A DNA stretch of 64,000 nucleotides from a virus (IMGVR_UViG_2823949316_000001:5531-69530), one strand, 5' to 3'; positions 19,833-48,206 are shown, numbered from the stretch's first letter. Numbers and translations: made by a program. The notes: generated by a model from the sequence alone, not told the origin.

Positions 19833-19876
19833 TTGCTCAAATACAACGCACCGGCGGAGCCGGTAAGGGGAAAGGG

Positions 19877-20128
19877 GTGAGCAAACTTCTCAGGCTGCTG
19901 GATATCATCGTCCCGCGCTTCATTTCCGAGGACACGGCAGTTCGCCGCGTCGGAAAATCGTCGATGTACGAGCCAGTGTGCTCGATGAAAGACATCGACC
20001 CAGGTGAGCGTTTCGATGGGATCGCCACCTACGTGATGTTCAACCTGTTCGGCCAGGGCCTGTTCCCTCGCCAGGTGGGCAGCATCCGCCCCTGGGTGAA
20101 CCCGCACGACGCGCAGGTGGCATCGTGA
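19877..20128 (+). CDS. Hypothetical protein (83 aa, MSKLLRLLDIIVPRFISEDTAV...)
   Basis: GTG start after an ACCGGC-GGA-GCCGGT hairpin and the AAGGGGAAAGGGGTG cassette. In-frame 3' part of ORF 19751..20128. Confidence 0.45.
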   Translation: MSKLLRLLDIIVPRFISEDTAVRRVGKSSMYEPVCSMKDIDPGERFDGIATYVMFNLFGQGLFPRQVGSIRPWVNPHDAQVAS

Positions 20129-20541
20129 TCCGCGCCGCGGCATTGGCCGCTGCACTGGTGGTGCTGGGTGGGTGCGACGGTGGCAGCCCCTCATACGGCG
20201 AGCTGAAGCCATACGATCAACCTGTCGGCCTGAAGGCTCGCGACGCTGATCGCTACGACCTTCTGGTTCTGCGCGACCCAGAGCGCGGGGTTACCTGCTG
20301 GCGACCCAGCAACGACAATCGAGCGCTGTCCTGCTTGCCAGACTGGATGCTCCAGGCCCAAGGGCCATCGGAAGCCATTGCCCATCAGCCGACCTGGGGC
20401 GATGGTCGCCCTTGCGCTGGGCACAAGGTGTGCGAGGGGTTCAGCAACCGTCGTGAGGCCCTGGCCTGCGCCGAAGGCCGACTGACCGGCCCAGCGTGCG
20501 ATGCTTGGGCTGAGCGCCAGCGTGAGGATCGTGGCCTATGA
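20125..20541 (+). CDS. Predicted lipoprotein (138 aa; signal peptide + lipobox LGGC)
   Basis: MIRAAALAAALVVLGGCDGG... GTGA-coupled. 6 Cys in the mature part. Confidence 0.5.
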   Translation: MIRAAALAAALVVLGGCDGGSPSYGELKPYDQPVGLKARDADRYDLLVLRDPERGVTCWRPSNDNRALSCLPDWMLQAQGPSEAIAHQPTWGDGRPCAGHKVCEGFSNRREALACAEGRLTGPACDAWAERQREDRGL

Positions 20542-20762
20542 TCCGCGCAACCACTCTCCTGCTCGCCGTGGCGGCCGCCGGCCTCCTGGCCAAAGCGCCC
20601 GCTGCAATCATGCCGACGCGCCGCCCTGAGTGGCAGCCTGGCTACGACATGAACGCGCTGCTTGACGATGCCGGCCGCCGGGCCGAGCGCGCGCTGCGCA
20701 AGGTGGCGCGCCGTTCCAAGCTCCAGCAGCTGCAGGCCCAGGCAGCAGGCGGTGCCGCATGA
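20538..20762 (+). CDS. Small secreted/membrane-anchored protein (74 aa)
   Basis: ATGA-coupled. N-terminal hydrophobic signal-like segment. Confidence 0.4.
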   Translation: MIRATTLLLAVAAAGLLAKAPAAIMPTRRPEWQPGYDMNALLDDAGRRAERALRKVARRSKLQQLQAQAAGGAA

Positions 20763-21043
20763 GGATCGCCTACAGCGCAGTATGCCGCGGCTACGCCAAG
20801 ACCGACCACACCGCCACCGCGGCGAAGAGCAAGGCCACCGGCAAGATCCGCGGCAATGCCCCGCTGATGACCGACGAGCAGATCCTGGAATGCCGGGCGC
20901 TCGACCAGTTCGCTGGCTGGGGCACCGAGCAGCTGCAGCGCCGCTACGGCGTCGACGCGGCCATGATTCAGCGCGTGCTGTCGGGCATCACCCGCTCGCG
21001 CCTGGTGGCCACCCGCAAGCACCTTCCAGCGGTGGCAGCATGA
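20759..21043 (+). CDS. Hypothetical protein (94 aa)
   Basis: ATGA-coupled ORF-track protein. Confidence 0.45.
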   Translation: MRIAYSAVCRGYAKTDHTATAAKSKATGKIRGNAPLMTDEQILECRALDQFAGWGTEQLQRRYGVDAAMIQRVLSGITRSRLVATRKHLPAVAA

Positions 21044-21171
21044 GCGCCGGGCAGTTTGTGGCGCTCTGCGCTGGCGTGTGGGTTCTGGCGGCGCTCGGCC
21101 TGCTCGCGTTCTTCCATGCTGCCACGCGCAATGACCCGGCCAGCATCATCGACGAGGAGGATGCCCTGTGA
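21040..21171 (+). CDS. Small membrane protein (43 aa, MSAGQFVALCAGVWVLAALGLLAFF...)
   Basis: ATGA overlap with the upstream stop. Single TM helix. Below the ORF-track size cutoff. Confidence 0.35.
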   Translation: MSAGQFVALCAGVWVLAALGLLAFFHAATRNDPASIIDEEDAL

Positions 21172-21566
21172 ACATCCAGCAACGCACCGAGGAGCGCTGG
21201 GGCATGCCGTTCTGGGATCTGGTCGGCGACTTCGCTGACCAGGGCCTGACCCGCAAGGACACGGCACGGGCGCTGGGCGTCGACTACTGCAACTTCCAGA
21301 AGAAGCTCGCTGACAACCCAAACAGTGACCCGTTCGATGCCTCGAACGTGGTCGCGCGCTACGTCGCCGAGACCGGCGAGCCGTTCCGTGATGCGGTGAT
21401 CAGGCTGGCCAAGACGCACACGGCCCAGGCCGCTGCGCTCGCGATCGGCTACTCGCACCGCAACCCATTCCTGCACGCCCTGCGCGCTCGCGGCATCGAG
21501 GTGCAGTTCCAGCGCCGCACGGCGCCAGATGCCCTTCACCAACTCTACGGAGATCACTCGAAATGA
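21168..21566 (+). CDS. Hypothetical HTH-containing protein (132 aa)
   Basis: GTGA-coupled. ...LTRKDTARALGVDYCNFQKKL... is HTH-like. Confidence 0.45.
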   Translation: MNIQQRTEERWGMPFWDLVGDFADQGLTRKDTARALGVDYCNFQKKLADNPNSDPFDASNVVARYVAETGEPFRDAVIRLAKTHTAQAAALAIGYSHRNPFLHALRARGIEVQFQRRTAPDALHQLYGDHSK

Positions 21567-21736
21567 ACGAGAACTACACCCACACGGAGCTCGTCGAGCT
21601 CGCAGCCATCCAGAAGCGCGCCGAGAAGCGCCTGCGCAAGTCTGTCCGCAAGCTGATCCGCGCCGACCTGCAGCGCCGGGCGATCACCGGCGAGCCGTCG
21701 CAGTTCAAGCGCGCTGCCTACGGCGCCCAGCTGTGA
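21563..21736 (+). CDS. Hypothetical small basic protein (57 aa)
   Basis: ATGA-coupled. MNENYTHTELVELAAIQKRAEKRLRK... Confidence 0.35.
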   Translation: MNENYTHTELVELAAIQKRAEKRLRKSVRKLIRADLQRRAITGEPSQFKRAAYGAQL

Positions 21737-21963
21737 GCAAGACCGCTCAGCGCCGGCGATCGGCCTACCAGAACGGCTATCGCGTGGGTCGCTACGGCTG
21801 GCCCGAAGGCGTGAAGAGCTACCGCGTGGGCGTGATCGGCGATGCAGCCTACGAGCGTGGCCTGCGCGATGGCCGCAAAGACCGCCGCGCCGCCCAGGAT
21901 CTGGGGCAGTCCATGCCGCGCCGCGTGCTCGCCTGGCTCAGCGGCCTGATGACCAAGCCCTGA
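21733..21963 (+). CDS. Second Rmf/CrpP-like small protein (76 aa; ...SAYQNGYRVGRYGWPEG...)
   Basis: GTGA-coupled. It is the 3' in-frame part of ORF 21529..21963. Confidence 0.4.
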   Translation: MSKTAQRRRSAYQNGYRVGRYGWPEGVKSYRVGVIGDAAYERGLRDGRKDRRAAQDLGQSMPRRVLAWLSGLMTKP

Positions 21964-22030
21964 CTAGCAATCTGGTGCTCTGGGTCGCCGGCCCCAGGGA
22001 ATACGCCACTTCCAGCCGGTATAAACCATC

Positions 22031-22051
22031 ATCGGGCGCCATTAGGGCGCC
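22031..22051 (+). repeat. TTCGGGCGC-N5-GGGCGC family motif, copy 2 (ATCGGGCGCCATTAGGGCGCC), fused to the ACAAGGGGAAAGGAAATG cassette
   Basis: Immediately upstream of the ACP gene. Confidence 0.55.
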
Positions 22052-22066
22052 ACAAGGGGAAAGGAA

Positions 22067-22309
22067 ATGGGCAAGACCGTAGAGCAGCGCGTCATCGAGA
22101 TCGTCGAGCAGCAGCTGGGCCTGGGCGGCAATGAGCCAGTGACCGCCGAGCAGCACATCCTGAACGACCTGGGCGGCGATAGCCTCGACTTCATCGAGAT
22201 TGTCATGGCCATCGAGGAGGAGTTCGAGATCGAGATCAGTGACGACGCCGCCGAAGGTGCGCAGACCGTTCAAGAAGCCATCGATCTGGTCAAGCGCCTG
22301 GTCGACTGA
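22067..22309 (+). CDS. Acyl carrier protein-like (80 aa; DSL phosphopantetheine-attachment motif LGGDSLDFIE)
   Basis: Acidic 4-helix-sized protein with Ser in the DSL motif. Preceded by motif copy 2 and a strong RBS, followed by a GGCGCC-TGCG-GGCGCC hairpin. Confidence 0.7.
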   Translation: MGKTVEQRVIEIVEQQLGLGGNEPVTAEQHILNDLGGDSLDFIEIVMAIEEEFEIEISDDAAEGAQTVQEAIDLVKRLVD

Positions 22310-22355
22310 TCACCACCACGGCGCCTGCGGGCGCCAACCTACCGAGGAAAGGAAA

Positions 22356-22781
22356 TTGAAACCACGTATCTTCGCGTACCTGTTCTTCATCGCCGTCATG
22401 TCCATGCTCATTGGCTCGGTGCGGCTCGACAGCCCAGGCCTGGCAAACATGGCCGCCGTCAGCCTTTGGGCGTTCTCCGCGCTCGGCATCTTCGGGGGTG
22501 TGATGGCCGCCGTAATGGGGCTCGGCGTCACGCACGCCACCGGCGAAGCGCGCGACAAGATCATTGCGCAAGCGCGCGACCTGATCGGAAAGACCACCTA
22601 CGGCCCTGTTCGCAAGACCATCTCCTGGCTGATGACGCTCGCCATCGTGCTGATGTCCGCATACGTCGGCTTGATCGCCACCGCGGTCATGTACTGCCTG
22701 GCGGTAGCTGCGACCCAGTTTGGCAAAGCCATGATCAAGTCAGCCTTGGCCGACTACGACGCCGAGGCATCCGCCGCCTAA
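22356..22781 (+). CDS. Integral membrane protein (141 aa, 4 predicted TM segments), TTG start
   Basis: TTG at 22356 after the hairpin + GAGGAAAGGAAATTG cassette. In-frame part of ORF 22200..22781. Confidence 0.5.
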   Translation: MKPRIFAYLFFIAVMSMLIGSVRLDSPGLANMAAVSLWAFSALGIFGGVMAAVMGLGVTHATGEARDKIIAQARDLIGKTTYGPVRKTISWLMTLAIVLMSAYVGLIATAVMYCLAVAATQFGKAMIKSALADYDAEASAA

Positions 22782-23265: not shown

Positions 23266-23510
23266 GCAGGTCAATTACCGGAAGCAAAGGCCCAGGCTAC
23301 GACTTCTGGTCGCGCAGGCCATTCAGCGGTCGAGGGCATGGCGCGGTGGTCAAGCACTTCTGCCACAAGGCGGAGCGGCAGCAGGGTCGCCGCGCACCTG
23401 CCCAAGCGTTGCGCGCGGAGCACAAAGCCGATGCGGCTGACGATGCATTTGAGGTATGGGAGTGCGATCAGATTGATCGGCTTTACGGGCTTCGCGAACT
23501 ACAACCCTGA
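23262..23510 (+). CDS. Hypothetical protein (82 aa)
   Basis: GTGA-coupled. In-frame 3' part of ORF 23007..23510. Confidence 0.4.
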   Translation: MSRSITGSKGPGYDFWSRRPFSGRGHGAVVKHFCHKAERQQGRRAPAQALRAEHKADAADDAFEVWECDQIDRLYGLRELQP

Positions 23511-23576
23511 TACACCATCAGGGCATCAACGCTCGCCACGCCAGACGCTGCAAGGGCTGGCGAGCACACCGCACAC

Positions 23577-23600
23577 CTTCGGGCGCCATTCGGGCGCACC
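23577..23600 (+). repeat. TTCGGGCGC-N5-GGGCGC family motif, copy 3 (CTTCGGGCGCCATTCGGGCGCACC)
   Basis: Intergenic, upstream of the HTH protein / ParB-MTase pair. Confidence 0.5.
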
Positions 23601-24189: not shown

Positions 24190-25694
24190 GCGACCTGAGC
24201 AAGATGATGGGCCTCGACCCGGACGTGCCGCAGATCAAACTGCGCCCGCTCGACAGCCTGGTGGCCTACGCCCGCAACAGCCGCACGCACTCGCCGGCCC
24301 AGGTCGAGCAGCTGCAGGCCCTCCTGCTGGAATACGGCTGGACGAACAGCGTCCTGATCGACGACATGGGCATCGTCGCCGGGCACGGGCGCTGCATGGC
24401 CGCTGAGGCGATCTACAAGCGCGGCGAGCAGATCAAGTTCCCGAATGGCACGCCGATCCCGATCGGCATGGTGCCGACCATGGACGTCACCGGCTGGAGC
24501 GCGCAGCAGCGCCGGGCGTACATCATCGCCGACAACCGCTCCGCCCTGTCCGCGGGCTGGGACGACGAAATGCTGAAGCTGGAGCTGGCCGAGCTGAAGG
24601 AAGCCGACTTCGACCTGTCGCTGACCGCCTTCGACGAGGACGAGCTGGCGGCGCTGCTGGCGCCGGAGATCGAGCTGCCCGAAGACAAGGATCCGGACGC
24701 AGCACCTGCAGCACCCGATGAGCCCGTCAGCGTGCCGGGCGACGTGTGGGTGATGGGCGCGCACCGGCTGTGCGTCGGTGATGCCACCAGCGTCGATGCC
24801 TGGGATCGCCTGCTGGGCACCGAGCAGGTCGATATCGTCTGGACAGATCCACCCTACAACGTCGACCAGGGCCGCAAGAACCGCGAGCAGGACAAGTGGG
24901 ACGGCGGCAACCGCGCGGACACGGGCGCGATCGCCAACGACAAGATGTCGCCGGCCGAGTTTTCCGAGTTCCTGCAGACCACCTTCGCCACCCTGTTCGG
25001 CGTGATGAAGCCAGGGGCGCCGATCTACGTGGCGCACTCCGACCTCGAGGGCCAGACCTTCCGCAACGCCTTCGCCGACGCCGGCCTGCACCTGCAGTCC
25101 TGCCTGGTCTGGAAGAAAGACCGGATGGTGCTGGGGCGCATGGACTGGCAGAGCATCCACGAGCCGATCCTGTACGGCTGGAAGAAGGGCAGCGCGCACC
25201 GCTGGTACGGCGGCCGCAAGAACACCAGCGTGATCGACCTGGGCGACGGCTCGCCGTTCACCCGCATGGAGGATGGCCGGTACCAGGTGCGCATCGGCGA
25301 GAGCGTGCTGGTGGTGTCGGCGGATGCCATGGTCGAGCAGCATCCGTCGTCGATGTTGTTCGAGCCCAAGCCGGCGAGCAGTGGCCTGCATCCGACGCAG
25401 AAGCCCGTTGCCCTTGTCGAGCGGATGCTGAAGCAGTCCGCACGTGCCGGCGACCTGGTGGCCGATGCCTTCGGCGGATCCGGCAGCACGCTGATCGCCG
25501 CCGATCGCCTGGGCATGTCGGCACGCCTGATGGAGCTCAGCCCGAAGTTCGCCGACGTGATCGTGCGGCGCTGGGAGCACTACAGCGGGCGCAAGGCGGT
25601 GCACGCGGTGACCGGCGAGGAGTTCCCGGGCGAGGGCGAGGCCCGCGCGCTACCGCCGCAGGTTGATGACCTTGACGACGAAGCGTTGTTCTGA
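24186..25694 (+). CDS. ParB-like nuclease domain fused to beta-class N6A/N4C DNA methyltransferase
   Basis: In-frame ATG (MSDLSKMMGL...) in ORF 23877..25694. ParB-like N-terminus (KLRPLDSLVAYARNSRTHSPAQVEQL). Motif IV VWTDPPYN followed by C-terminal motif I DAFGGSGST. Confidence 0.85.
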   Translation: MSDLSKMMGLDPDVPQIKLRPLDSLVAYARNSRTHSPAQVEQLQALLLEYGWTNSVLIDDMGIVAGHGRCMAAEAIYKRGEQIKFPNGTPIPIGMVPTMDVTGWSAQQRRAYIIADNRSALSAGWDDEMLKLELAELKEADFDLSLTAFDEDELAALLAPEIELPEDKDPDAAPAAPDEPVSVPGDVWVMGAHRLCVGDATSVDAWDRLLGTEQVDIVWTDPPYNVDQGRKNREQDKWDGGNRADTGAIANDKMSPAEFSEFLQTTFATLFGVMKPGAPIYVAHSDLEGQTFRNAFADAGLHLQSCLVWKKDRMVLGRMDWQSIHEPILYGWKKGSAHRWYGGRKNTSVIDLGDGSPFTRMEDGRYQVRIGESVLVVSADAMVEQHPSSMLFEPKPASSGLHPTQKPVALVERMLKQSARAGDLVADAFGGSGSTLIAADRLGMSARLMELSPKFADVIVRRWEHYSGRKAVHAVTGEEFPGEGEARALPPQVDDLDDEALF

Positions 25695-25776
25695 TTGTGC
25701 AAACCCAGATCACCAGTCTGGGAATCCAAGCCTATAAAGCTGAGTCCTTTCAACAACTTACGCCAAATAGCAAGGG

Positions 25777-25798
25777 TCTCGGGCGCGTATAGGGCTCA
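25777..25798 (+). repeat. TTCGGGCGC-N5-GGGCGC family motif, copy 4 (TCTCGGGCGCGTATAGGGCTCA)
   Basis: Intergenic, in a lower-GC stretch upstream of the AraC-family gene. Confidence 0.5.
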
Positions 25799-25907: not shown

Positions 25908-26888
25908 GTGGCAGGACTTCCCGCAACCCCCGGCATCGAGATCCAGCATTTCGAAAACGCGGGCATCCGGATATTCACCGGCAAGTACACTGGACAGATA
26001 GACAATTTTACCGTGCCTGAGCACGTCGTGGTTCTGTCGCACTCGGATTACAAGCCGATCAGTTATGCTCCGGTAGAGCGCTGGAAGGTGAACGATGTCT
26101 GCTTCCTCCCCAAGGGATACACGCAGACCGGGCACCTGGCTGAGCTCGCCGAGCTGACTGCTATCAGGATGAGCGACGACCTCTTCACCAAGGTGGCCGA
26201 GGATCACGTCGACCACTCCCGCATCGAATTCCGCTATGCCGACATCACCGGGCCGACGACGCAGTCTCTGTCCGGAGCGCTTCGGCACATGTCCATGACC
26301 GAAGGATTCCGCGAGTGGCCGCTGCTGATCGAGAGCACGGCGATTGCCCTGGCTGTCGCTGCCGTGCGCAAGCTGTCGCCCAAGGCGTCGGTTGCATTCG
26401 ACAAGCAGAGCGAGCTCAGCGCGGCCAGGCGCCGGCGGGTGATGGACTTCATCGACGACAACATCCACCGGCAGATCACCCTGGCTGAGTTGGCAGCAGC
26501 GGCCAACCTGAGCGCCTTCCACTTCGCGCGCCGGTTCAAGGCTGCGACCGGCCAGACGCCGCTGCGGTTCATCGCCGAGCGGCGGGTGGTGGAGGCCAAG
26601 AAGCGCCTGCGTTCAGGGGTGATGCCGCTGGCACAGGTCGCACTGGAATGCGGCTACACCGGCCAGAGCCACTTCACCACAGCGTTCAAGGCCGTTACCG
26701 GCGTCACCCCGGGCATCTACCGCCGGGGAGCTCAGGCGGTGCTGATCGCCGGCCTGCTCTGCTTTTCCCTCATGTACAACGTCGCGACCCAGGCGGGCGC
26801 CATGGATGTCCTGATGGCCGCTATGCATGAGTTCGGCCACGAAGTCGTCGAGTTCGCGGTCGATCTGGATGACTTTCTTGAGCCGTAG
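25908..26888 (+). CDS. AraC/XylS-family transcriptional regulator (326 aa)
   Basis: C-terminal double HTH (...ITLAELAAAANLSAFHFARRFKAATGQTPLRFIAERRVVEAKKRL...ALECGYTGQSHFTTAFKAVTGVTPGIYRR). N-terminal sensor domain. The GTG start at 25908 has no clear SD, so the start is uncertain. Confidence 0.75.
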   Translation: MAGLPATPGIEIQHFENAGIRIFTGKYTGQIDNFTVPEHVVVLSHSDYKPISYAPVERWKVNDVCFLPKGYTQTGHLAELAELTAIRMSDDLFTKVAEDHVDHSRIEFRYADITGPTTQSLSGALRHMSMTEGFREWPLLIESTAIALAVAAVRKLSPKASVAFDKQSELSAARRRRVMDFIDDNIHRQITLAELAAAANLSAFHFARRFKAATGQTPLRFIAERRVVEAKKRLRSGVMPLAQVALECGYTGQSHFTTAFKAVTGVTPGIYRRGAQAVLIAGLLCFSLMYNVATQAGAMDVLMAAMHEFGHEVVEFAVDLDDFLEP

Positions 26889-26955
26889 TTCTGCTGCGCC
26901 ATCATTCGTGACGCGACAATCCTGATCAGGGTTAGTTCTGATCAGGAAAGGCACA

Positions 26956-28134
26956 TTGAAAAAGTCCAATGATTTGCAGCGTGCTGAGTACCAGCACCCG
27001 TTCAAGAAAGCGACTGACGAGCAAGTCATGGAGTGCATACGTGCAAACCTGACCGGCAAGCAGGCGGCCGCCAAACTGGGTATCCATGAGCGCGTCTACT
27101 TCTCCCGCAAAGCTGCGTTGGTGAAGAAGGGCTTCAGCCCTGAGCACGACATGGTGCACACGGTGCCTGACGGCTTCCTGGTGAAGGGCGTCAGCACCTA
27201 CTACGACGTGGATGGCAAGCCGCGCGGCCAGTGGGTCAAGAGCCAGGTCGACCGCGAGCGCCAGATCGAGCTGCTGCGCGAGGCCTGCGAGGCCATGGTC
27301 GAAGAGCTGCCCAAGCTCAAGCCGCGCAAGGATAACGGCCAGTACCTGTCGCACCTGATGGCAACCTACCCGATCGGCGATGCCCACATCGGCATGCGCG
27401 CCTGGGCCGAGGAGACGCAGGGCCAGAACTGGGATCTTGAGATCGGTGAGCGGATTCAGTGCGGCGCGATGGCCGCCCTCGTCGAGATGTCGCCGCCAGC
27501 CGAGAAGGCGGTCATCATCAACCTTGGGGATTGGTTCCACGCCGACAACATGGAAGGCACGACCAGCCGTAGCGGGCACATCCTGGACATGGACGGCCGC
27601 TACGCCAAGATGATCCGCGTCGGCATCAAGGTCATGCGCCAGTGCATCGAGTCAGCCCTGGGCAAGCACCGCACCGTGCGCGTCATCAACGTGATCGGCA
27701 ACCACGACGACACCGGCGCCATCTGGCTGGGCATCGCCCTGGGCCACATCTACGCCAACGAGCCGCGCGTCGAGATCGACAACAGCCCGGCGCCGTTCAT
27801 GTACGTCGAGCACGGCAAGGTGCTGATCGGCATGCACCACGGCCACACCTGCAAGCCCGACCGCCTGCCTGGCGTGATGGCTGCAGACCAGGCCAAGGCC
27901 TGGGGCCGCACCGAGTACCGCTACTGGTTCCTGGGCCACGTCCACCACCAGAGCGTCAAGGAATACGCCGGTGTCACCGTCGAGTCGTTCAACACGCTGA
28001 CCGCCAAGGACGCGTATGCTGCCTGGGGCGGCTACCGCGCGCAGCAGAACATGAAGTGCATCGTCATGCATTCGGAGTTCGGCGAAGTCGCGCGCCACAT
28101 CGTCAACCCGGCCATGCTCGAAGGCGCGGCCTGA
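26956..28134 (+). CDS. Calcineurin-like metallophosphoesterase with N-terminal HTH-like region (392 aa)
   Basis: Motifs GDAHIG, GDWFH, GNHDD, GMHHGH, GHVHH in canonical order. The 5' end of the gene is lower GC. Confidence 0.7.
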   Translation: MKKSNDLQRAEYQHPFKKATDEQVMECIRANLTGKQAAAKLGIHERVYFSRKAALVKKGFSPEHDMVHTVPDGFLVKGVSTYYDVDGKPRGQWVKSQVDRERQIELLREACEAMVEELPKLKPRKDNGQYLSHLMATYPIGDAHIGMRAWAEETQGQNWDLEIGERIQCGAMAALVEMSPPAEKAVIINLGDWFHADNMEGTTSRSGHILDMDGRYAKMIRVGIKVMRQCIESALGKHRTVRVINVIGNHDDTGAIWLGIALGHIYANEPRVEIDNSPAPFMYVEHGKVLIGMHHGHTCKPDRLPGVMAADQAKAWGRTEYRYWFLGHVHHQSVKEYAGVTVESFNTLTAKDAYAAWGGYRAQQNMKCIVMHSEFGEVARHIVNPAMLEGAA

Positions 28135-28728: not shown

Positions 28729-28768
28729 CCAGACTGCGAGTCTGGGTGTCACCACCTGCAACACCAGC

Positions 28769-28800
28769 AGCGGCGCGCCATCTGAGCGCGCCGCTCTGTT
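28769..28800 (+). terminator. Terminator-like hairpin (AGCGGCGCGC-7nt-GCGCGCCGCT) followed by motif copy 5
   Basis: 10-bp perfect stem followed by a weak T tract (TCTGTTTC). Confidence 0.45.
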
Positions 28801-28820
28801 TCGGGCGCGTATCGGGCGCC
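28799..28820 (+). repeat. TTCGGGCGC-N5-GGGCGC family motif, copy 5 (TTTCGGGCGCGTATCGGGCGCC)
   Basis: Upstream of the higBA-like pair. Confidence 0.5.
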
Positions 28821-29163: not shown

Positions 29164-29168
29164 GAGAC

Positions 29169-31434: not shown

Positions 31435-31467
31435 ATAATCAGGGCGTCACAGCTCAGGAACACAAGG

Positions 31468-31519: not shown

Positions 31520-31603
31520 AGGTGTTGCAATTGATCAGAAAAGAGTAATAGAATTGCGTCACTGCCGAGGCATGAGCCAGGCAGAACTCCAGAGGAAAGG
31601 AAT

Positions 31604-32470
31604 GTGGAAAGTAACGTTCGCGGTTATGCGGTAAAAGGTCTTGTGGCAGTGGCGGCTCTGCTTCTGTTTGTGGCAGCCATTCTGAGCTTCTACACCGTCG
31701 ACGAGAAGGAACGTGGCGTGGTGCTGCGTAACGGTGCGTTCGTCGAGGTGGCGGATCCCGGCCTGCACTGGAAGATCCCCTTCATTGACACGGTGAAGAC
31801 CATCTCGGTGCAGAACAACGCCAACAACTGGAACGGTCTGCAGGCCTACAGCCGCGACCAGCAAGCCGCATCGCTGGTGGTGTCGGTCAGCTGGCACGTT
31901 CCACCAGGCGAAGTCGCTGCCGTGTACCGTGGCTACGGCGACCTGGAAGGTCTGCTGGCCCGAGCCATTGCCCGCCACGTGCCGACCCAGGTCGAGAACG
32001 TGTTCGGCCAGTACACCGCCGTCAACGCTGTGCAGCAGCGCGGCAAGCTCGTCACGGACATTGCTTCGGCGATCAAGGGCGCCATTACCGGCCCAGTGGT
32101 GATCGACAGCGTCCAGGTCGAGAACATCGACTTCAGTGATGCCTACGAGAAGTCGATCGAAGAGCGCATGCGGGCCGAAGTCGCCGTGAAAACCCGCGAG
32201 CAACAGCTGGCCACCGAGCAGATCCAGGCGCAGATCGTGGTCACCCAGGCCCAGGCCACGGCTGACTCAGCGCTCGCTGCCTCCCGTGCCAAGGCTGAAG
32301 GTATCGCGCTGCTGGGTGCCGCGGAAGCCGAGGCGATCAAGGCTCGTGCTCAGGCCCTGGGCAGCAACCCGGAGCTGGTGGAGCTGACCAAGGCAGAGCG
32401 TTGGAACGGTGCCCTGCCTTCGACCATGCTGCCGAACCAGGCGCTGCCGTTCATCGAAGCCAAGAAGTAA
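31604..32470 (+). CDS. SPFH/Band-7 (prohibitin/HflK/C-like) membrane protein, GTG start
   Basis: N-terminal TM helix, then ...VDEKERGVVLRNGAFVEVADPGLHWKIPFIDTV... and a long Ala/Glu/Gln-rich coiled coil. Start GTG 31604 after GAGGAAAGGAAT. Confidence 0.75.
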   Translation: MESNVRGYAVKGLVAVAALLLFVAAILSFYTVDEKERGVVLRNGAFVEVADPGLHWKIPFIDTVKTISVQNNANNWNGLQAYSRDQQAASLVVSVSWHVPPGEVAAVYRGYGDLEGLLARAIARHVPTQVENVFGQYTAVNAVQQRGKLVTDIASAIKGAITGPVVIDSVQVENIDFSDAYEKSIEERMRAEVAVKTREQQLATEQIQAQIVVTQAQATADSALAASRAKAEGIALLGAAEAEAIKARAQALGSNPELVELTKAERWNGALPSTMLPNQALPFIEAKK

Positions 32471-32537
32471 TGCAATCGGGCGCCCCGGCGCCCAACCCTT
32501 AGAACAACAGCAGGCGCGGCCTGCAGGGGAAAGGAAG

Positions 32538-32831
32538 GTGAGCAAACAGAACGAGCTGGAGCTGAACAGTACCAGCACTCTCGCCCTAACGGGCAACGCC
32601 CTGGGCCACGAGTTCGGGCATCAGGACTACGGCACGCTGCAACTGAATGGCGTGCGCCTGGTGAATGAGGCCTGGCTGCTCGGCATGATTGAGCAGCGCG
32701 ACCAGCTCCTGGCGGCGCTGGAGAATGCGGAGGAGTGCCTGGCCGGCGTCGATGCAACGGACTACCCGGTCAGCGAAGAGCTTGCGCAGGTGCGCGCCGC
32801 CATCGCCGCGGTGAAGGGTGGTGCCCAATGA
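32538..32831 (+). CDS. Hypothetical protein (97 aa) ending ...KGGAQ
   Basis: GTG start after two GC hairpins + AGGGGAAAGGAAGGTG. In-frame 3' part of ORF 32409..32831. Confidence 0.5.
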   Translation: MSKQNELELNSTSTLALTGNALGHEFGHQDYGTLQLNGVRLVNEAWLLGMIEQRDQLLAALENAEECLAGVDATDYPVSEELAQVRAAIAAVKGGAQ

Positions 32832-34052: not shown

Positions 34053-34243
34053 GTAGCACTCGCGTGTCATCACGCCAGATCCCATGCTGGCCTACGCCGT
34101 GCAGTAAAGAGGGATGCGTTTACCTCAATGCTGACGGCGTTTGCGGCGAGCCCAGAATTAACCGAGGGAATAGCGATGCCGCGTGCCATCGAATGAATCC
34201 GAAGGACGTCCTGGCGGCTCTGTCGATCACTCCCAGACACTGA
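34049..34243 (+). CDS. Small Cys-rich protein (64 aa)
   Basis: GTGA-coupled. 6 Cys. Confidence 0.35.
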   Translation: MSSTRVSSRQIPCWPTPCSKEGCVYLNADGVCGEPRINRGNSDAACHRMNPKDVLAALSITPRH

Positions 34244-34275
34244 ATCAGGGTGTCACAGTATCAAGATCAAGCAGC

Positions 34276-34305
34276 GGCGCGGCCTTAAAGGCTGCGCCAT
34301 TTTTC
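34276..34305 (+). terminator. Rho-independent terminator (GGCGCGGCC-TTAAA-GGCTGCGCC + ATTTTTC)
   Basis: 9-bp stem with one mismatch, followed by a T-run and then motif copy 7. Confidence 0.55.
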
Positions 34306-34326
34306 TAGGGCGCCAATAGGGCGCAA
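34305..34326 (+). repeat. TTCGGGCGC-N5-GGGCGC family motif, copy 7 (TCTAGGGCGCCAATAGGGCGCA)
   Basis: Followed by GAGGAAAGGACATG and the gene at 34345. Confidence 0.5.
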
Positions 34327-34344
34327 AATATTTGAGGAAAGGAC

Positions 34345-34761
34345 ATGTCATTCCCGAACAAAGCAGGCGATCACCAAGACACCGACGACATTCTGCGTGC
34401 CGAGCTGAAGGCGGCCGGCATCCCGACCATTCAGGAAGCGGATGGAAAAGGCCCTGAGCACATGGCCGAGCTGCTGCGCAAGATGTCGGGCGAGGTCAAA
34501 ACCTCCGTAATCGGCATCCTGCACGGCTGGAAGTTCACTCGTGCCTGGTACTACTGGGTCTGCGAAGGCCCGGGCATCGAGGTTGCGGCTGCAGAGGAAC
34601 TGCACGCCTCACATGGTCGTTCGGTTCGCGTTGACGGCCACTGCGGCTGCCCTAGCCCTCGCGAGCAGTACAAGGGGCTGGCTGTCGGTCTCTACCATGT
34701 AGACGACGCGGACGGCCTCAAGGCCCTGGCCGACACCATCCGCAAATTGGTCGGTGAATAG
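34345..34761 (+). CDS. Hypothetical protein (138 aa)
   Basis: ORF-track protein with strong RBS. Confidence 0.55.
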   Translation: MSFPNKAGDHQDTDDILRAELKAAGIPTIQEADGKGPEHMAELLRKMSGEVKTSVIGILHGWKFTRAWYYWVCEGPGIEVAAAEELHASHGRSVRVDGHCGCPSPREQYKGLAVGLYHVDDADGLKALADTIRKLVGE

Positions 34762-34846
34762 CGCAGGCGTTGCGCATATTTGAGCAAGTAAGTTACACTC
34801 GCCACAAGACAAACAACCGCCGGCATGACCGGCCAAGGAAAGGAAG

Positions 34847-35434
34847 GTGGAAGACAATATTCAGTGGGAGGAATGCGCTATTGGCGCCTTCGCTAACGTG
34901 AGCGGCATGTTCCGTTCATTCCAGGTATCCACGAAAGTCCGTGACGACAACTGCGTTCAGCCAGGTCGCGCAGGTTTTGTTGGCAAGAAGGTCGATGGTG
35001 CTGAGTACCACGTTTTCTCCGACATCTGGCTCTGGATTCCGCGCCCCGTGAAATGGAACGGCGAAGGCCTTCCACCGGTTGGGGCTGAACTCGAGTGCGG
35101 ATTTGCATGCGAAGGCTTCAAGGCCTGGCACAAAGGTGTCTGTGTCGCTATCGGCATTGATCCGGAAGACCGTGAAGAAATCTGCGTCGTGAAGAGCGGC
35201 GAGAAGATCGCCATGTACACGACCTATGGCGGCAGGATGCGCCCCATCCGCACCGCCGAGCAGATCGCGGCCGAGGAGCGCAATGAACGCATTGCAGCCA
35301 TGTGCAAGCTGGTGCAGGCGCATCCAACGTATCCAGTTCACAATCTTGACATCTCCCACTCTGCCGCCATGCGCCTCACTGTCGAAGCCCTGCACGACGC
35401 CGGCTACCGCCGTGTCGAAGGCGGTGCGCAATGA
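34847..35434 (+). CDS. Hypothetical protein (195 aa) ending ...EGGAQ
   Basis: GTG start after a GCCGG-CATGA-CCGGC hairpin + CAAGGAAAGGAAGGTG. Confidence 0.5.
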   Translation: MEDNIQWEECAIGAFANVSGMFRSFQVSTKVRDDNCVQPGRAGFVGKKVDGAEYHVFSDIWLWIPRPVKWNGEGLPPVGAELECGFACEGFKAWHKGVCVAIGIDPEDREEICVVKSGEKIAMYTTYGGRMRPIRTAEQIAAEERNERIAAMCKLVQAHPTYPVHNLDISHSAAMRLTVEALHDAGYRRVEGGAQ

Positions 35435-36928: not shown

Positions 36929-37260
36929 TGGCCGTCCTCAACAAGCACCATCACGGCGGCCAGATCCCGCAAGGCGCGGTCAACATCATGCGCGGGACGC
37001 TGTTCGGCAACCCGTTCGTGATCGGCCGCGACGGCGATCGCACCGAGGTGGTCGAGAAGTACCGGCAGTATCTGTGGAAGCGGATTCGCGAGGACTACAC
37101 CTTCATGAATGCCGTCTACAAGCTGCACGGCCGCGACCTGTGTTGCTGCTGCGCACCGGCGGCCTGCCACGGGCACGTACTCGAGCGGGCCGCTGCCTGG
37201 CTGGAGCTGCGTTCGCGCCCAGCCGAAGAAAATCAATCAGACGCGCCCGCCGGGCGCTAG
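36928..37260 (+). CDS. Hypothetical protein (110 aa) with GNPF...C..C..CH motif (DUF4326-like)
   Basis: TGATG-coupled. ...LFGNPFVIGRDGDRTEVVEKYRQYLW...CCCCAPAACHGH... Confidence 0.5.
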   Translation: MAVLNKHHHGGQIPQGAVNIMRGTLFGNPFVIGRDGDRTEVVEKYRQYLWKRIREDYTFMNAVYKLHGRDLCCCCAPAACHGHVLERAAAWLELRSRPAEENQSDAPAGR

Positions 37261-37270
37261 GGGAAAGGAA

Positions 37271-37723
37271 GTGAGCGAACTGATGGATCACGGCATCATC
37301 GGGATGCCGTTCGATATGGCAATGGGCGACGAGCTATCGCGCCAGCAGTTCTATGCCCGGGCTCAGGCGATACTTGCCGAGCGCGACCAGCTGCGCGCCG
37401 AGGTCGAGGCTTTGCGCGAAGATGTCGAGGCGGGCGAGCAGTGGCGCGCACTGGCGCTTCAGTTTGACCGGCACCGCATGTCAGCGATTTGGCACCTGAA
37501 AGCACTGCTGGGCAGCGCCGAGCACGCAGGCGCTGCCCATGATTTCCTCGATGCGCCACCGGTGCAGGGAAATGTGTTGTGGGCTGAGATCGAGGCGCTG
37601 CGGAAGGATGCGGCGCGCTGGAATTGGTATGCGCCGCAGGTAGGCAAGTATGTCGGCGAAGGCATTGATGCCGTGAACGCAGAAGTAGACGCCGCCATGG
37701 CTGCGAAGGAGGGTGACCTGTGA
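37271..37723 (+). CDS. Hypothetical coiled-coil protein (150 aa)
   Basis: GTG start after a GCGCCC-GCC-GGGCGC hairpin + TAGGGGAAAGGAAGTG. Confidence 0.45.
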   Translation: MSELMDHGIIGMPFDMAMGDELSRQQFYARAQAILAERDQLRAEVEALREDVEAGEQWRALALQFDRHRMSAIWHLKALLGSAEHAGAAHDFLDAPPVQGNVLWAEIEALRKDAARWNWYAPQVGKYVGEGIDAVNAEVDAAMAAKEGDL

Positions 37724-37968: not shown

Positions 37969-38016
37969 TGACCAGATGCCAAGTCAGGGGCTCAGCCTCC
38001 TGATCGCCTACTGACG

Positions 38017-38045
38017 CGCCGCCTACAAGGGCGGCGTTGTCGTTT
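38017..38045 (+). terminator. Rho-independent terminator (GCGCCGCC-TACAAG-GGCGGCG + TTGTCGTTT)
   Basis: Follows the gene at 37968 and directly abuts motif copy 8. Confidence 0.55.
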
Positions 38046-38063
38046 CGGGCGCTGGTAGGGCGC
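38041..38063 (+). repeat. TTCGGGCGC-N5-GGGCGC family motif, copy 8 (GTTTCGGGCGCTGGTAGGGCGCG)
   Basis: Heads the 240-nt structured leader of the 1295-aa gene. Confidence 0.5.
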
Positions 38064-38246: not shown

Positions 38247-38285
38247 TGGGCGGCGCGCCACCCGTCGTGATTCCACAATGGGCAC

Positions 38286-46246: not shown

Positions 46247-46249
46247 TGC

Positions 46250-46279
46250 TTGCTCATATCTGAGCAACACAGGTACAAT
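46250..46279 (+). promoter_or_regulatory. Sigma70-like promoter (-35 TTGCTC, 18-nt spacer, -10 TACAAT) overlapping the palindrome TTGCTCATATCTGAGCAA
   Basis: Directly after the MTase stop. Followed by a GCCGGGC-AAC-GCCCGGC hairpin, AGGGGAAAGGAAGGTG and the gene at 46327. Confidence 0.55.
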
Positions 46280-46326
46280 TCAGCCAACACAACAGAGCCG
46301 GGCAACGCCCGGCAGGGGAAAGGAAG

Positions 46327-46845
46327 GTGAAATTAGTAGAGTTGCTGGCACGGAAGCTGGGCGAGTGGCCTGATAGCTGCATGGTTATCGCCCAGGACTT
46401 AAGCGGCATAGTATTTCTTTGGAAGTATCAAGACATCGAGTTCGAGGGTAATGGGTGGCGTCACCGAACGAACATGGGTCTTTGTGATTTCGAGTATGAA
46501 ATCGGCCAGCACGAGACTTGCACTGACCACGCCACCGCCATCGTCACCCGCGAGCAGTGGCAGGCCGAGCGTGATCGACTGATCGCCAGCGGCGAAGAGC
46601 TGCCCACCCATCGCATCGTCGGTGACGCCAACGATGCCGAGGGCGCGCTGGCCGGCGCCCAGGCCGAGGCCGACACCTGGGAGCAGCGCGCCGTCAAAGA
46701 GGCAACCCGCGTCGTCGAGCTGGAGGCGGAGCGAGCCGATCTCGTAGCGGCACTGGAAGCCATTATCACCATTTCCGACCGCAAGCACGACGCATGGGAT
46801 CACGCCAAGGCGCTGATTGCCCGCGTCAAGGGCGGTGCGCAATGA
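46327..46845 (+). CDS. Hypothetical protein (172 aa) with a low-GC N-terminal domain and a C-terminal coiled coil ending ...VKGGAQ
   Basis: GTG start. The first ~200 nt are markedly AT-richer than the rest, suggesting a chimeric gene. Confidence 0.5.
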   Translation: MKLVELLARKLGEWPDSCMVIAQDLSGIVFLWKYQDIEFEGNGWRHRTNMGLCDFEYEIGQHETCTDHATAIVTREQWQAERDRLIASGEELPTHRIVGDANDAEGALAGAQAEADTWEQRAVKEATRVVELEAERADLVAALEAIITISDRKHDAWDHAKALIARVKGGAQ

Positions 46846-47138
46846 ACCATCATCTCCTGATCGGGCAGAAGCTCCAGCAGCTGCTGGATCTTGCCGAGCG
46901 CGCGCGGCAGAACACCGACCTGCTCAGCAACCACTTCGAGAGCAAAGTCCCGCAACGCCTGACCGACCACTTGGCAGCGCTGCTTGATCACCAGCAGAAG
47001 ATCATGGCAGCGGACGGTGGCGAGAGCGCCGGCGCCGACTACATGACGTCAATCGATGCTGATATCCGCAAGGTAAAGCACGCCCTCACCGCGTATGTTC
47101 CTGAAGCGGCGGGCCTGGTGAGCGGAGGTGCGCAATGA
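46842..47138 (+). CDS. Hypothetical protein (98 aa) ending ...SGGAQ
   Basis: ATGA-coupled in-frame ATG in ORF 46794..47138. Confidence 0.45.
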   Translation: MNHHLLIGQKLQQLLDLAERARQNTDLLSNHFESKVPQRLTDHLAALLDHQQKIMAADGGESAGADYMTSIDADIRKVKHALTAYVPEAAGLVSGGAQ

Positions 47139-47356
47139 GCATCATCGAGCAGATCGCCGGGCGACTGTTCGCCATCGAAATGCTGCGCAGCGTAGACGGC
47201 ATGCCGAAGTCGATGTTTGCCGATGGTGGCGGCCTGGACACCGTGGCGCGCAATCTGGAAGCCACTGCAGCGCGCTATCCCGCTGACTACGCCGCCGGCA
47301 TCCGCCAGGTGACCGGCCAGGTGCTCGCCAAGCTGGCGGCTGGGGGTGGGAAGTGA
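47135..47356 (+). CDS. Hypothetical protein (73 aa)
   Basis: ATGA-coupled. Confidence 0.4.
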   Translation: MSIIEQIAGRLFAIEMLRSVDGMPKSMFADGGGLDTVARNLEATAARYPADYAAGIRQVTGQVLAKLAAGGGK

Positions 47357-47712
47357 GCATCGTCAAGGTCAAAAAGGCTTTGGTCATCACCCTTGGTGCC
47401 GGGAGCGTGCTGGTCGGGCAGGCCGTCACGCGCCACCAGGCGGCACTGTGCTTCGTCCGGCCAGCAGAGTCGAAGGCGCCAGGAACGCCTGCGCCTGAGC
47501 TGGACAACACCATGCAGGTTGAGGATGTCGACGCAGCCATCGCCTTCCCGGACGTCCTGGCGATCGATCGCATGATCAACAACCTCACCCAGCTGCGCGC
47601 CGCCTTCGCGGAAGCCAGGAAGCAGCCGGCCAAATGCGTCGAGTGCGACGACGGCATGTGCGGCGGCACCGGCATCTACGAAGGCCGCAAGTGCGATGGG
47701 ATACCGTTCTGA
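47353..47712 (+). CDS. Hypothetical protein (119 aa) with C-terminal CVECDDGMCGG...C zinc-binding-like motif
   Basis: GTGA-coupled. Confidence 0.4.
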   Translation: MSIVKVKKALVITLGAGSVLVGQAVTRHQAALCFVRPAESKAPGTPAPELDNTMQVEDVDAAIAFPDVLAIDRMINNLTQLRAAFAEARKQPAKCVECDDGMCGGTGIYEGRKCDGIPF

Positions 47713-48089
47713 TGGGCTGTGTCATCGAAGGGGAGCGCTGTACTCGATGCTGCGAAGCAATCACTCTGAAAATGAGCCGGTCGCAACTTCTGGCTCATCC
47801 ATCTTCAGATGCCCAGTTCATCCGCGAGCACTGGAAGCCGATCAGTAAGCGTAGGGCGAAGAAGAAAAACCCTTACCTGTTTCAGCGGCACCCGCGCCTG
47901 CAATCTGCAAAGGCATGGCGCCTGTACCACTGCACGGCTCTGACAAGTGAGGGATGCGGAAAGTACGAGGATCGTCCGGCGGTGTGCAGCGGTTACCCTC
48001 TGTATGGGGCGGGCGGCCTGCACAGCAGGCCTGACTATCACCCGCAGTGCGTGGAGTGGAAAATGATCGACGTGGTGCAGAATCCCTGA
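47712..48089 (+). CDS. YkgJ-like cysteine-cluster protein (125 aa; CTRCCEAI...C...C)
   Basis: TGATG-coupled in-frame ATG in ORF 47634..48089. The 5' half is lower GC. Confidence 0.45.
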   Translation: MGCVIEGERCTRCCEAITLKMSRSQLLAHPSSDAQFIREHWKPISKRRAKKKNPYLFQRHPRLQSAKAWRLYHCTALTSEGCGKYEDRPAVCSGYPLYGAGGLHSRPDYHPQCVEWKMIDVVQNP

Positions 48090-48154
48090 TCCCAAAGCAG
48101 GGCATCAACACCGCCTCACCCTCGGTGCAGTAAGGCTGCAGTGGTGAGGCGAAA

Positions 48155-48178
48155 ACTTCGGGCGCGTATAGGGCGCTC
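48155..48178 (+). repeat. TTCGGGCGC-N5-GGGCGC family motif, copy 9 (ACTTCGGGCGCGTATAGGGCGCTC)
   Basis: Follows a long CGCCTCACC...GGTGAGGCG hairpin (48112-48151). Upstream of the phosphatase gene. Confidence 0.5.
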
Positions 48179-48206
48179 CAGCAAACAGCCCGGGAGGGCA
48201 GAAAGG

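Follow-up and report, generated by a model that had tools for sequence, protein, structure and literature searches.

What is the composite sequence that precedes about 15 genes of the viral DNA stretch IMGVR_UViG_2823949316_000001:5531-69530 (64,000 nucleotides, referred to below as the window)? It consists of a short GC-rich hairpin, a purine block with the core GGAAAGG and a start codon, and is called the cassette here. The explanation preferred in this work, to which an even chance is given, is a lineage-specific, start-associated translation cassette on the first gene of each accessory block, which serves also as a portable junction for block exchange. By its sequence the window (G+C about 63%) is a Dolphis-like temperate myovirus of about 93 kb, collinear with two phages of Pseudomonas putida, Jeremy and Dolphis (MT711888, 93.5 kb, which has an integrase and a sheathed tail), at a nucleotide identity of about 79–82%, in patches; more distant relatives infect Pseudomonas syringae (Touem01), Bordetella (PHB04) and Aeromonas (ST4). 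The gene map is based on our own codon-usage gene calls (Table 1).

Purine block and start codons

A preliminary description of the window listed ten rightward genes with a common start sequence. Direct reading shows GGAAAGG 1–4 nt 5' of the ATG, GTG or TTG at all ten, with a degenerate variant of the block, GGGAGGGCAGAAAGG-ATG, at 48207. The motif had been called nearly invariant; the exact 11-mer GGGGAAAGGAA is present in only four copies, and the consensus is RR-GGAAAGG-AA, followed by 0–3 nt and the start codon. With at most one mismatch the 11-mer has 8 matches against 0.53 expected, a number reached in 0 of 100 shuffles. The core occurs in 17 copies, 10 on the plus and 7 on the minus strand, and at 15 of these sites it lies directly 5' of a start codon (0–4 nt), on both strands and always co-oriented with the gene. 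An automated test, requiring a start codon within 6 nt after GGAAAGG that heads an open reading frame (ORF) of at least 40 codons, was passed by 14 sites and not 15, because the gene at 12412 has 37 codons. The assignment of the cassette to the rightward strand was thus correct for the ten genes listed but too narrow, since the block also precedes the leftward genes at 12412, 14036, 14686, 53789 and 54608, accompanied at four of these five by a hairpin.

The frequent use of GTG and TTG was confirmed: non-ATG starts were found in 9 of 14 cassette genes and in 15 of 69 others (P = 0.003). Among 51 start-associated sites in eight sequences there are 34 GTG, 14 ATG and 3 TTG codons. If translation begins at the cassette GTG at 46327, the family PHROG 7798 aligns with the product from its first residue (residue 1), which supports this codon as the true start. 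In public gene calls on a near-identical contig (locus L133), downstream ATGs are annotated instead, 46381 for 46327 and 37283 for 37271; neither has a ribosome site.

Specificity for the lineage and for the gene class

Start-associated GGAAAGG, defined as in the automated test, occurs per 100 kb 21.9 times in the window, 14.0 in Jeremy (half genome), 10.9 in Touem01, 9.6 in Dolphis and 5.3 in PHB04. The control rates are 1.0 in P. putida plasmid pWW0 (100 kb), a proxy for the host chromosome, and 1.3 in unrelated IMG/VR contigs with G+C of at least 55% (304 kb). At gene starts of the plasmid and of unrelated GC-rich phages the block is therefore about 5–20 times less frequent, and it is shared by relatives infecting Pseudomonas, Bordetella and Aeromonas, the last represented by ST4.

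Within the lineage the cassette is limited to a part of the genes. No cassette was found before structural or replication genes of the window, and 83 kb of structural-gene loci from 22 relatives contain 0 start-associated copies. Late and large genes start with another signal, GTCGTGAY-N14-ATG, without a Shine–Dalgarno (SD) sequence, found at 4 sites against 0.08 expected; in nearly all 22 IMG/VR relatives (L134-L155) the protease gene has this motif in front of it. With the cassette on accessory genes and this motif on late genes, start signals are specific to the gene class.

These data bear on the simplest alternative, a generic host SD consensus combined with chance GC hairpins in a genome of 63% GC. 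It would account for AGGA/GGA at the SD position of the block and for the total of GC hairpins in the window (50), which matches that of shuffled sequences (46.7 ± 7.2). The rarity of the start-associated block in the controls, its use on three host genera, its absence from the lineage's own structural genes, the linkage of hairpin and block (P = 2e-10, below) and the retention of hairpins in relatives contradict it; this alternative is largely refuted and is considered very improbable.

Hairpins upstream of the purine block

The six hairpins quoted in the preliminary description (beginning at 19850, 22320, 32510, 34819, 37243 and 46297) are present exactly as written. A hairpin at each listed start was not confirmed. 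At 31604 one is present, but it is longer and imperfect (CTGCC-13 nt-GGCAG), and the supposed hairpins at 22067, 34345 and 48207 are a direct-repeat box, GGGCGC-N5-GGGCGC, which belongs to a separate element.

At 11 of 17 sites GGAAAGG is preceded, within 14 nt, by the end of a perfect GC stem of 5 bp or more; the share is 5.8% among 20,000 random positions (binomial test, P value as above) and 9 of 74 among other gene starts. Seven hairpins form a tight class (Table 1) with a stem of 6–7 bp, a 3-nt loop and 3–4 nt to GGAAAGG, the one at 34819 having a 5-bp stem and a 5-nt loop. At the 51 start-associated sites a hairpin is present in 34, with 22 different 5' arms, and most end 2–4 nt before GGAAAGG. 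On this comparison of sequences, what the cassettes have in common is the shape and position of the hairpin, and not the stem sequence.

In ten folded leaders the hairpin is the dominant predicted structure, and the purine block and start codon are unpaired in the centroid of all ten. The folding z-scores are all negative, from -0.2 to -2.3, with a Stouffer combination (our own) of about -4.7. Over positions -14 to +3, cassette genes have a predicted unpaired probability of 0.54, and other genes one of 0.45 (P = 0.024).

Several known types of hairpin were considered and rejected. No U-tract was found on the sense strand after the cassette hairpins, so they are not canonical terminators: on the transcribed strand a purine block follows instead. 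True terminators with T-runs are separate features of the window. Sites of the CsrA/RsmA type do not fit the loops, which are GGA (once), GCG, GCC, AAC, GCT, CATGA and TGCG, and on inspection the leaders do not fit the AAnAAnAA motifs of Hfq/Crc. Hairpin promoters of the N4 type have a comparable 5–7 bp stem and 3-nt loop, but no giant virion or T7-like RNA polymerase was found among the scanned window proteins. Integron attC-like sites were rejected, as the hairpins are too short and lack core sites. Rfam 15 gave 0 matches in the entire window at the gathering score.

The hairpins might alternatively act as DNA-level operators, palindromes to which a phage regulator binds, or as transcription attenuators setting the polarity from one gene block to the next; they would then lie near the ribosome site only for want of intergenic space. 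Several stems do hold the hexamer GGGCGC/GCGCCC of the direct-repeat box (14049, 37243, 32478), the opposite strand of the hairpin with its CA-rich leader reads as a weak terminator, and the stem-loops of the promoter-early stem-loops (PeSLs) of T4-type phages were shown to attenuate transcription (PMC2839356). Since the sense strand has no U-tract, Touem01 has cassettes without GGGCGC boxes, and hairpin position is fixed to the purine block and not to promoters, this explanation is unlikely; 22 stem sequences without a consensus also make a single DNA-binding protein unlikely.

Arrangement of cassette-headed genes

Genes headed by a cassette come after an intergenic gap and are followed by genes coupled through stop/start overlaps of 4 nt. 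The cassette genes encode unrelated products: an exonuclease, an acyl-carrier-like protein and an SPFH-like lipoprotein, besides several proteins of unknown function. Sigma-70-like promoter-like sites precede three or four of the approximately 15 cassettes (46250, 34770, 31525 and perhaps 19828); these sites overlap the palindrome TTGCTCAnATnTGAGCAA, and the hairpin lies in the 5' leader after 10–13 nt of C/A-rich sequence. The cassettes at 22356, 32538, 37271, 14036 and 14686 are purely intercistronic and leave no room for a promoter.

The palindrome TTGCTCAnATnTGAGCAA recurs at 46250-46267, 34770-34787 and 19833-19848 and within the gaps 3340-3525, 12413-12709, 16424-16540 and 54609-54922, and it overlaps the -35 position of sigma-70-like promoters. 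It is probably a phage repressor operator at early promoters in both arms.

A second junction, GG-N-GGTGC(G/C)CA-ATGA, forms stop/start overlaps at 32820-32831, 33431-33442, 35423-35434, 46834-46845 and 47127-47138 on the plus strand and is present in Touem01 near 11065. Owing to this overlap, unrelated small proteins end in ...GGAQ and the next gene begins at the overlapping ATG.

Association with variable genes and conservation among relatives

Homologues in Dolphis or Jeremy were found for 0 of 10 rightward cassette-headed genes and for 21 of 39 others in the same arm (Fisher P = 0.003). Single cassettes persist where the flanking genes differ. The earlier proposal of a modular junction sequence is thus supported, whereas a recombination scar is not: the cassette occupies the ribosome-site position, its geometry is constant, and on either strand it is oriented with its gene. 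An RNA processing or stability element, or a site for a translational regulator, as also suggested there, are candidate readings; no RNA-binding protein was found in the window. Of 11 left boundaries of non-homologous segments, 6 fall on a cassette (P = 0.10).

The leftward cassette F1, GCGCCCC-GCY-GGGGCGC-TAR-GGAAAGGAA, is near-identical in seven sequences, namely the window, Dolphis, Jeremy, Touem01, one 94-kb IMG/VR contig and two contigs from metagenomes. Its upstream flanking proteins are 49–75% identical, and the downstream ones are 34–50% identical or, in the window and Touem01, unrelated; Dolphis, Jeremy and L126 share homologues of both flanking genes. In the GCAGGC stem both arms are kept, while all three loop bases vary (GAT and ATT in Dolphis/Jeremy) and the downstream genes are unrelated. 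At the 19850 junction the hairpin is kept in Dolphis and Jeremy with a compensatory change of the outer A-T pair to G-C, and homology to Dolphis ends about 10 nt beyond the start at 19877. Behind an RE-like gene the window, Jeremy and Touem01 have different gene sets, each begun by a hairpin and GGAAAGGAA, and Dolphis has a hairpin with a different purine block, GAGGAAAA. The Jeremy hairpin at this junction, GCGGGGC-GCT-GCCCCGC, shows a second compensatory stem change, a C-G to G-C swap, against the window hairpin at 46297, the orthology of the pair being uncertain. Hairpins are conserved in homologous phages, and the start-associated block is rare in the plasmid and phage controls, so that both conditions given as refuting in the preliminary description fail.

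A signal specific to particular genes was rejected: the 31604 gene has homologues in 33 IMG/VR contigs, where they lack the cassette, and the PHB04 and Touem01 homologues of two cassette genes are not cassette-headed. The signal therefore goes with position and not with gene family.

The association with variable genes could also mean that the cassette is primarily a recombination linker, conserved as a short homology patch of mobile blocks, in the way proposed for PeSLs, with an incidental role in translation. Identical cassettes before unrelated genes in different phages agree with this, as does conservation that runs through the start codon and ends there; the window also encodes recombination functions, an exonuclease and an adjoining AAA ATPase, and its minus strand at 58298-58341 reads as a gene-less cassette. 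Crossovers at PeSLs were mapped between the -10 element and the SD/ATG (PMC2839356). The shared block, however, has only 11–15 nt and the hairpins of most copies differ, which leaves very short homology; only about half of the left boundaries carry a cassette; F1, kept at one syntenic site across deep divergence, resembles purifying selection in place rather than traffic; and the fixed distance from hairpin to block, together with the unpaired block, points to a constraint at the RNA level. A primary linker is a doubtful explanation, though it comes next after the preferred one.

Complementary locus at 58.3 kb

The gap between two late genes holds CTTCCTTTCCTT, which is exactly complementary to the cassette block. 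A promoter-like site precedes this sequence, a terminator follows it, and predicted folding places it in a loop. The minus strand of 58298-58341 reads as a cassette without a gene behind it. The locus is a conservation island in Dolphis (7870-7950, L002) and Jeremy (9837-9920, L130); the 10–12-mer is absent from Touem01, PHB04, ST4 and 22 IMG/VR relatives. It may equally be a small antisense RNA or a gene-less minus-strand cassette.

The first of these possibilities enters a further alternative, in which the purine block, alone or combined with the hairpin, serves as a regulon tag read by a trans-acting factor that switches the accessory class on or off together. The candidate factor is an RNA-binding protein or a nuclease, of phage or host origin, or else an antisense RNA with the sequence CUUCCUUUCC. 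A tag would suit the limitation of the block to one gene class, late genes using their SD-less signal, as well as the fixed hairpin-to-block spacing, the F1 hairpin kept in sequence, the exact complement at 58259-58341 and an 11-nt conservation that exceeds what 16S pairing explains. Among about 50 window proteins scanned, however, none has a CsrA, Hfq, S1, KH or similar domain; the complement is missing from Touem01, PHB04 and ST4, all of which have the cassette, and from the further relatives; and GGA in one hairpin loop only does not make sites of the CsrA/RsmA type. A regulon tag is held to be improbable. A similarly low probability is given to its specific form, in which block and hairpin would be a class tag on early accessory mRNAs and a candidate small RNA of about 50 nt from 58.29–58.34 kb would read it. 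If so, the loop CUUCCUUUCCUU of this RNA, an exact complement of AAGGAAAGGAAG, could silence about 15 genes at once, and late genes would escape through their SD-less start signal.

Proposed function of the cassette

From the position, geometry and distribution described above we infer a use of the cassette by the ribosome, a role of its hairpin and a part in recombination. As a translation cassette it would act on mRNA and mark the head of each independently translated accessory block, non-structural and probably early. The unit proposed to act in this way reads, from 5' to 3', as a C/A-rich and G-poor leader; a near-pure G-C hairpin of 5–8 bp, usually with a 3-nt loop; 2–4 nt, often TAA or TAG; and the consensus block with its short spacer and start codon, GTG in two thirds. 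The first GGA, about 9–11 nt before the start codon, would be the SD contact at normal spacing, and the second AGGAA a purine spacer. The hairpin at its fixed distance would serve as a clamp, locking neighbouring GC-rich RNA and leaving the purine block and start codon unpaired; it may also dock on the 30S platform or slow the entry of nucleases. Genes further down the block would need no cassette because they are coupled by overlaps. A cassette of about 30 nt in some 15 copies per genome, start codon included, would moreover supply short homology for the exchange of accessory blocks among related phages, and exchange at this homology would leave gene expression unbroken.

Several observations weigh against this interpretation. 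Predicted pairing with the 16S tail is -7.9 kcal/mol for cassette genes and -7.3 kcal/mol for other window genes (P = 0.49), so that neither complementarity nor a "strong ribosome site" explains the 11-nt conservation. The gain in accessibility is small and the z-scores of single hairpins are modest. The F1 hairpin, kept in sequence and not just in structure, agrees more with a sequence-specific partner than with a passive clamp. The boundary coincidence is suggestive only, and no pair of relatives close enough for crossover mapping was found: a 1295-aa protein of the window had no match in IMG/VR, a methylase search gave relatives of at most 49% identity, a contig scan gave two unrelated loci of metagenome-assembled genomes, without cassettes, and exact protein matches were limited to a source-like contig and one other contig. 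Gene starts come from our own crude caller with a slight bias to ATG, and the host rate is that of a plasmid.

Features of the window

Proteins encoded in the window include a primase, a helicase, DNA methylases, a large terminase, a portal, an AraC-family protein (25908-26888) and a small repressor (3526-3762); no tRNA genes were found in the 64 kb. The terminase at 48986 corresponds to position 1 of Dolphis. Coordinates are collected in Table 1.

Table 1. Positions of cassettes, promoter-like sites, repeated elements and gene regions, counted from the first nucleotide of the window.
Feature	Position	Strand	Details
Cassette	19850..19879	+	ACCGGC-GGA-GCCGGT (19850-19864, tight class), AGGGGAAAGGG, GTG 19877; -10-like CATAAT 19828-19833
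Cassette, intercistronic, without promoter	22320..22358	+	GGCGCC-TGCG-GGCGCC (22320-22335), 8 nt, GAGGAAAGGAA, A, TTG 22356
Variant cassette	26921..26958	+	Repeated palindrome CCTGATCAGG...CTGATCAGG into GGAAAGG, CACA, TTG 26956 (exonuclease-like gene)
Promoter, sigma-70-like	31525-31554	+	TTGCAA-18-TAGAAT, upstream of 31604 cassette
Cassette	31525..31606	+	Imperfect leader hairpin CTGCC...GGCAG (31562-31584), GAGGAAAGGAA, T, GTG 31604
Cassette heading four overlapping genes	32510..32540	+	GCAGGC-GCG-GCCTGC (32510-32524, tight class), AG, GGGAAAGGAA, G, GTG 32538
Promoter-like site	34770-34799	+	TTGCGC-17-TACACT overlapping TTGCGCATATTTGAGCAA palindrome, upstream of 34847 cassette
Cassette heading six overlapping genes	34770..34849	+	CA-rich leader, GCCGG-CATGA-CCGGC (34819-34833, tight class), CAAGGAAAGGAAG, GTG 34847
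Cassette	37243..37273	+	GCGCCC-GCC-GGGCGC (37243-37257, tight class), TA, GGGGAAAGGAA, GTG 37271
Promoter-like site	46250-46279	+	TTGCTC-18-TACAAT with palindrome TTGCTCATATCTGAGCAA, upstream of 46327 cassette
Cassette heading four overlapping genes	46250..46329	+	CA-rich leader AACACAACAGA, GCCGGGC-AAC-GCCCGGC (46297-46313, tight class), AGGGGAAAGGAAG, GTG 46327
Cassette F1	14034..14065	-	GCGCCCC-GCT-GGGGCGC (14049-14065, tight class), TAA, GGAAAGGAA, ATG 14036
Cassette	14684..14713	-	GCGGCC-GCT-GGCCGC (14699, tight class), TTA, GGAAAGGAA, ATG 14686
Cassette	12410..12462	-	8-bp hairpin GCGCACCG-TCGAC-CGGTGCGC (12442-12462), 17 nt, GAGGAAAGGAAG, ATG 12412
Cassette	54606..54656	-	GCCGC-CAGGCGC-GCGGC (54640-54656), 19 nt CA-rich, GAGGAAAGGAAC, GTG 54608
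Purine block without hairpin	53787..53800	-	AAGGAAAGGAA, ATG 53789
Overlap-joined blocks	32538->32828->33439->33654; 34847 and five more; 46327 and three more	+	
92-bp element, copies 1-5	18863-18954, 21959-22050, 23506-23597, 25705-25797, 28729-28819	+	
92-bp element, copies 6-9	31427-31519, 34233-34324, 37972-38063, 48085-48176	+	
Box followed by purine block	22034..22069	+	Box GGGCGCCATTAGGGCGC (22034-22050), GGGGAAAGGAA, ATG 22067; acyl-carrier-protein-like gene, no cassette hairpin
Composite element	34233..34347	+	Palindrome CCAGAC-N5-ATCAGG (34233-34249), terminator (34276-34304), box GGGCGCCAATAGGGCGC (34308-34324)
Start behind the 34233 composite element		+	GAGGAAAGGAC, ATG 34345
Composite element	48085..48209	+	Palindrome 48085-48101, box GGGCGCGTATAGGGCGC 48160-48176, degenerate block GGGAGGGCAGAAAGG, ATG 48207
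Terminators with T-runs	28769, 31470, 34276, 38017, 58318		
Complementary locus	58259..58341	+	Promoter-like TTGCAG...CATACT, CTTCCTTTCCTT (58298-58309), terminator GCCGCTC-CCTG-GAGCGGC-T6 (58318-58341)
Late start motif GTCGTGAY-N14-ATG	38264-38288, 48964-48988, 54901-54925, 58366-58390	+	1295-aa gene, terminase, portal, capsid protease
Replication genes	1-10 kb		Codon-usage calls
Leftward accessory arm	10.6-17.2 kb	-	Codon-usage calls
Long rightward accessory arm	18-49 kb	+	Codon-usage calls
Short leftward block	51.6-54.6 kb	-	Codon-usage calls
Structural genes	from 54.9 kb	+	Codon-usage calls

The accessory gene at 22067-22309 (plus strand) encodes an acyl-carrier-protein-like product (PP-binding, E = 8e-14). 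The 1295-aa protein (38286-42173, plus strand) is conserved across the lineage and annotated as "ADP-ribosyltransferase" in Dolphis and ST4; no sequence relative was found in Pfam, PHROG or PDB. In Jeremy a stretch of about 300 nt at 25000-25300 (locus L117), nearly all G and A (GAGAGGAAAGG...), has no Dolphis counterpart and may be an assembly artefact or a low-complexity insert.

The 92-bp palindrome–terminator–box element

The list of starts in the preliminary description had merged two features, the cassette hairpins and a 17-bp direct repeat, GGGCGC-NNNTA-GGGCGC (the box). Nine copies of the box are present, all on the plus strand between 18.9 and 48.2 kb, against 2.5 expected. Each follows, at an offset of 75 ± 1 nt, a 17-bp palindrome, CCWGAY-N5-RTCWGG, situated at or beside the stop codon of the gene before it; the 58-nt interval between palindrome and box of the resulting 92-bp element often contains an intrinsic terminator. 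Of the listed genes, only the one at 48207, behind one of the copies, has homologues in Dolphis and Jeremy.

An alignment of 22 copies, taken from the window, Dolphis and PHB04, has almost no gaps, and the element is kept in Dolphis, Jeremy, PHB04 and ST4 (seven copies) on the accessory-gene strand. In Touem01 neither palindrome nor box was found, though hairpin-plus-purine cassettes are present, so that cassette and 92-bp element are separable. The 22-copy alignment shows no covariation at the central W positions of the palindrome (13 copies pair, 9 are mismatched), which favours a DNA site; an RNA hairpin was rejected on these counts.

As a sigma-54 promoter the box has a fitting GG-N10-GC spacing, but T-14/T-15 are missing, no enhancer-binding protein was found, and in ST4 and PHB04 the start codon is too near; a sigma-70 promoter was rejected for lack of a -10 element at a fixed distance. 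Neither a phage RNA polymerase nor an enhancer-binding protein was found among the scanned window proteins. An AraC-family regulator, kept in all five phages, is one candidate reader of the element. Phyletic profiling for a factor present in box-bearing phages and absent from Touem01 gave only spurious antisense ORFs.

Clusters of GGGCGC-N5-GGGCGC were observed in Dolphis at 40144-40567 (L002; five overlapping copies) and in ST4 at 33016-33254 (L131; two copies), adjoining in both an integrase gene and a tRNA-like sequence; the same protein may thus act at the attachment/integrase region.

Comparison with known systems

In T4, early genes share a ribosome-site sequence by which the phage can shut them off: RegB cleaves GGAG within early SDs, and the ribosome sites of early genes are bound by RegA. 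The cassette resembles this arrangement in marking a presumably early class with a ribosome-site sequence that could be used for shut-off; the motif differs, and no RegA/RegB homologue or any RNA-binding domain was found in the window. The staphylococcal small RNAs RsaE/RoxS have C-rich loops with UCCC motifs that pair with G-rich SDs. The CUUCCUUUCC locus at 58.3 kb is similar in its pyrimidine-rich loop, predicted to be unpaired, its terminator and its complementarity to many SD regions, but it would encode a putative RNA of three close phages only and can alternatively be read as a minus-strand gene-less cassette.

The closest known analogues of the cassette are the Start-Associated Sequences and Extended SAS (SAS/ESAS) found in mycobacteriophages of Cluster K (Pope et al. 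2011, PMC3203893) and the PeSLs (Arbiol et al. 2010, PMC2839356; Comeau et al. 2014, PMC4122927). The SAS function is presumed to be translation initiation (PMC3203893) and was still unverified in 2025 (PMC12699233). Like the cassette, SAS/ESAS are short asymmetric repeats with an SD core, located a few nucleotides before the starts of a subset of genes and directed with them. They are limited to the non-structural part of the genome and rare in the host, as is the cassette by the pWW0 proxy; their conservation goes beyond 16S pairing, they are attached to different gene families, and an inverted repeat stands immediately upstream in roughly half to two thirds of the copies. Unlike them, the cassette consensus RRGGAAAGGAA has no sequence relationship to the 13-bp SAS consensus GGGATAGGAGCCC, which is not matched here with up to two deviations. 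The ESAS arms are 17-bp imperfect inverted repeats with a subcluster-specific consensus and no RNA hairpin, whereas the cassette has 5–8 bp GC stems with 22 arms and predicted hairpins. SAS favours ATG and the cassette GTG, and the former belongs to actinobacterial siphoviruses, the latter to proteobacterial myoviruses.

PeSLs are likewise small composite repeats in plastic, ORFan-rich regions, with a GC stem-loop and ending in an SD and start codon. They border insertions, deletions and replacements between relatives and preferentially flank ORFans of hyperplastic regions; the cassette likewise heads genes that lack homologues in Dolphis or Jeremy. The defining part of a PeSL is a strong sigma-70 promoter, and of the cassettes three or four in about 15 have a promoter-like site; the most conserved part of the cassette is the purine block. 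The PeSL stem-loop lies within or next to the promoter and terminates transcription, while the cassette hairpin lies between promoter and SD or between two genes and has no U-tract. Recombination at PeSLs was shown experimentally (mini-circles, mapped crossovers), and for the cassette it is proposed.

No description of such motifs was found in the searched papers that mention these phages, one of which gives the Dolphis genome as unpublished. In the lineage the cassette stands among layered signals, with operator-promoters, the 92-bp palindrome–terminator–box element and a separate late-gene start motif. It is of practical use for correcting gene starts, as at the two public calls on downstream ATGs, and for flagging accessory gene blocks, and it offers a compact, portable ribosome-site module for high-GC hosts. 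As P. putida is a genetically tractable host, the function of such sequences becomes testable. After SAS/ESAS and PeSLs, the cassette is a third independent example of phages tagging swappable non-structural genes with a standard start cassette, and the three examples suggest a general solution for keeping newly acquired genes expressed.

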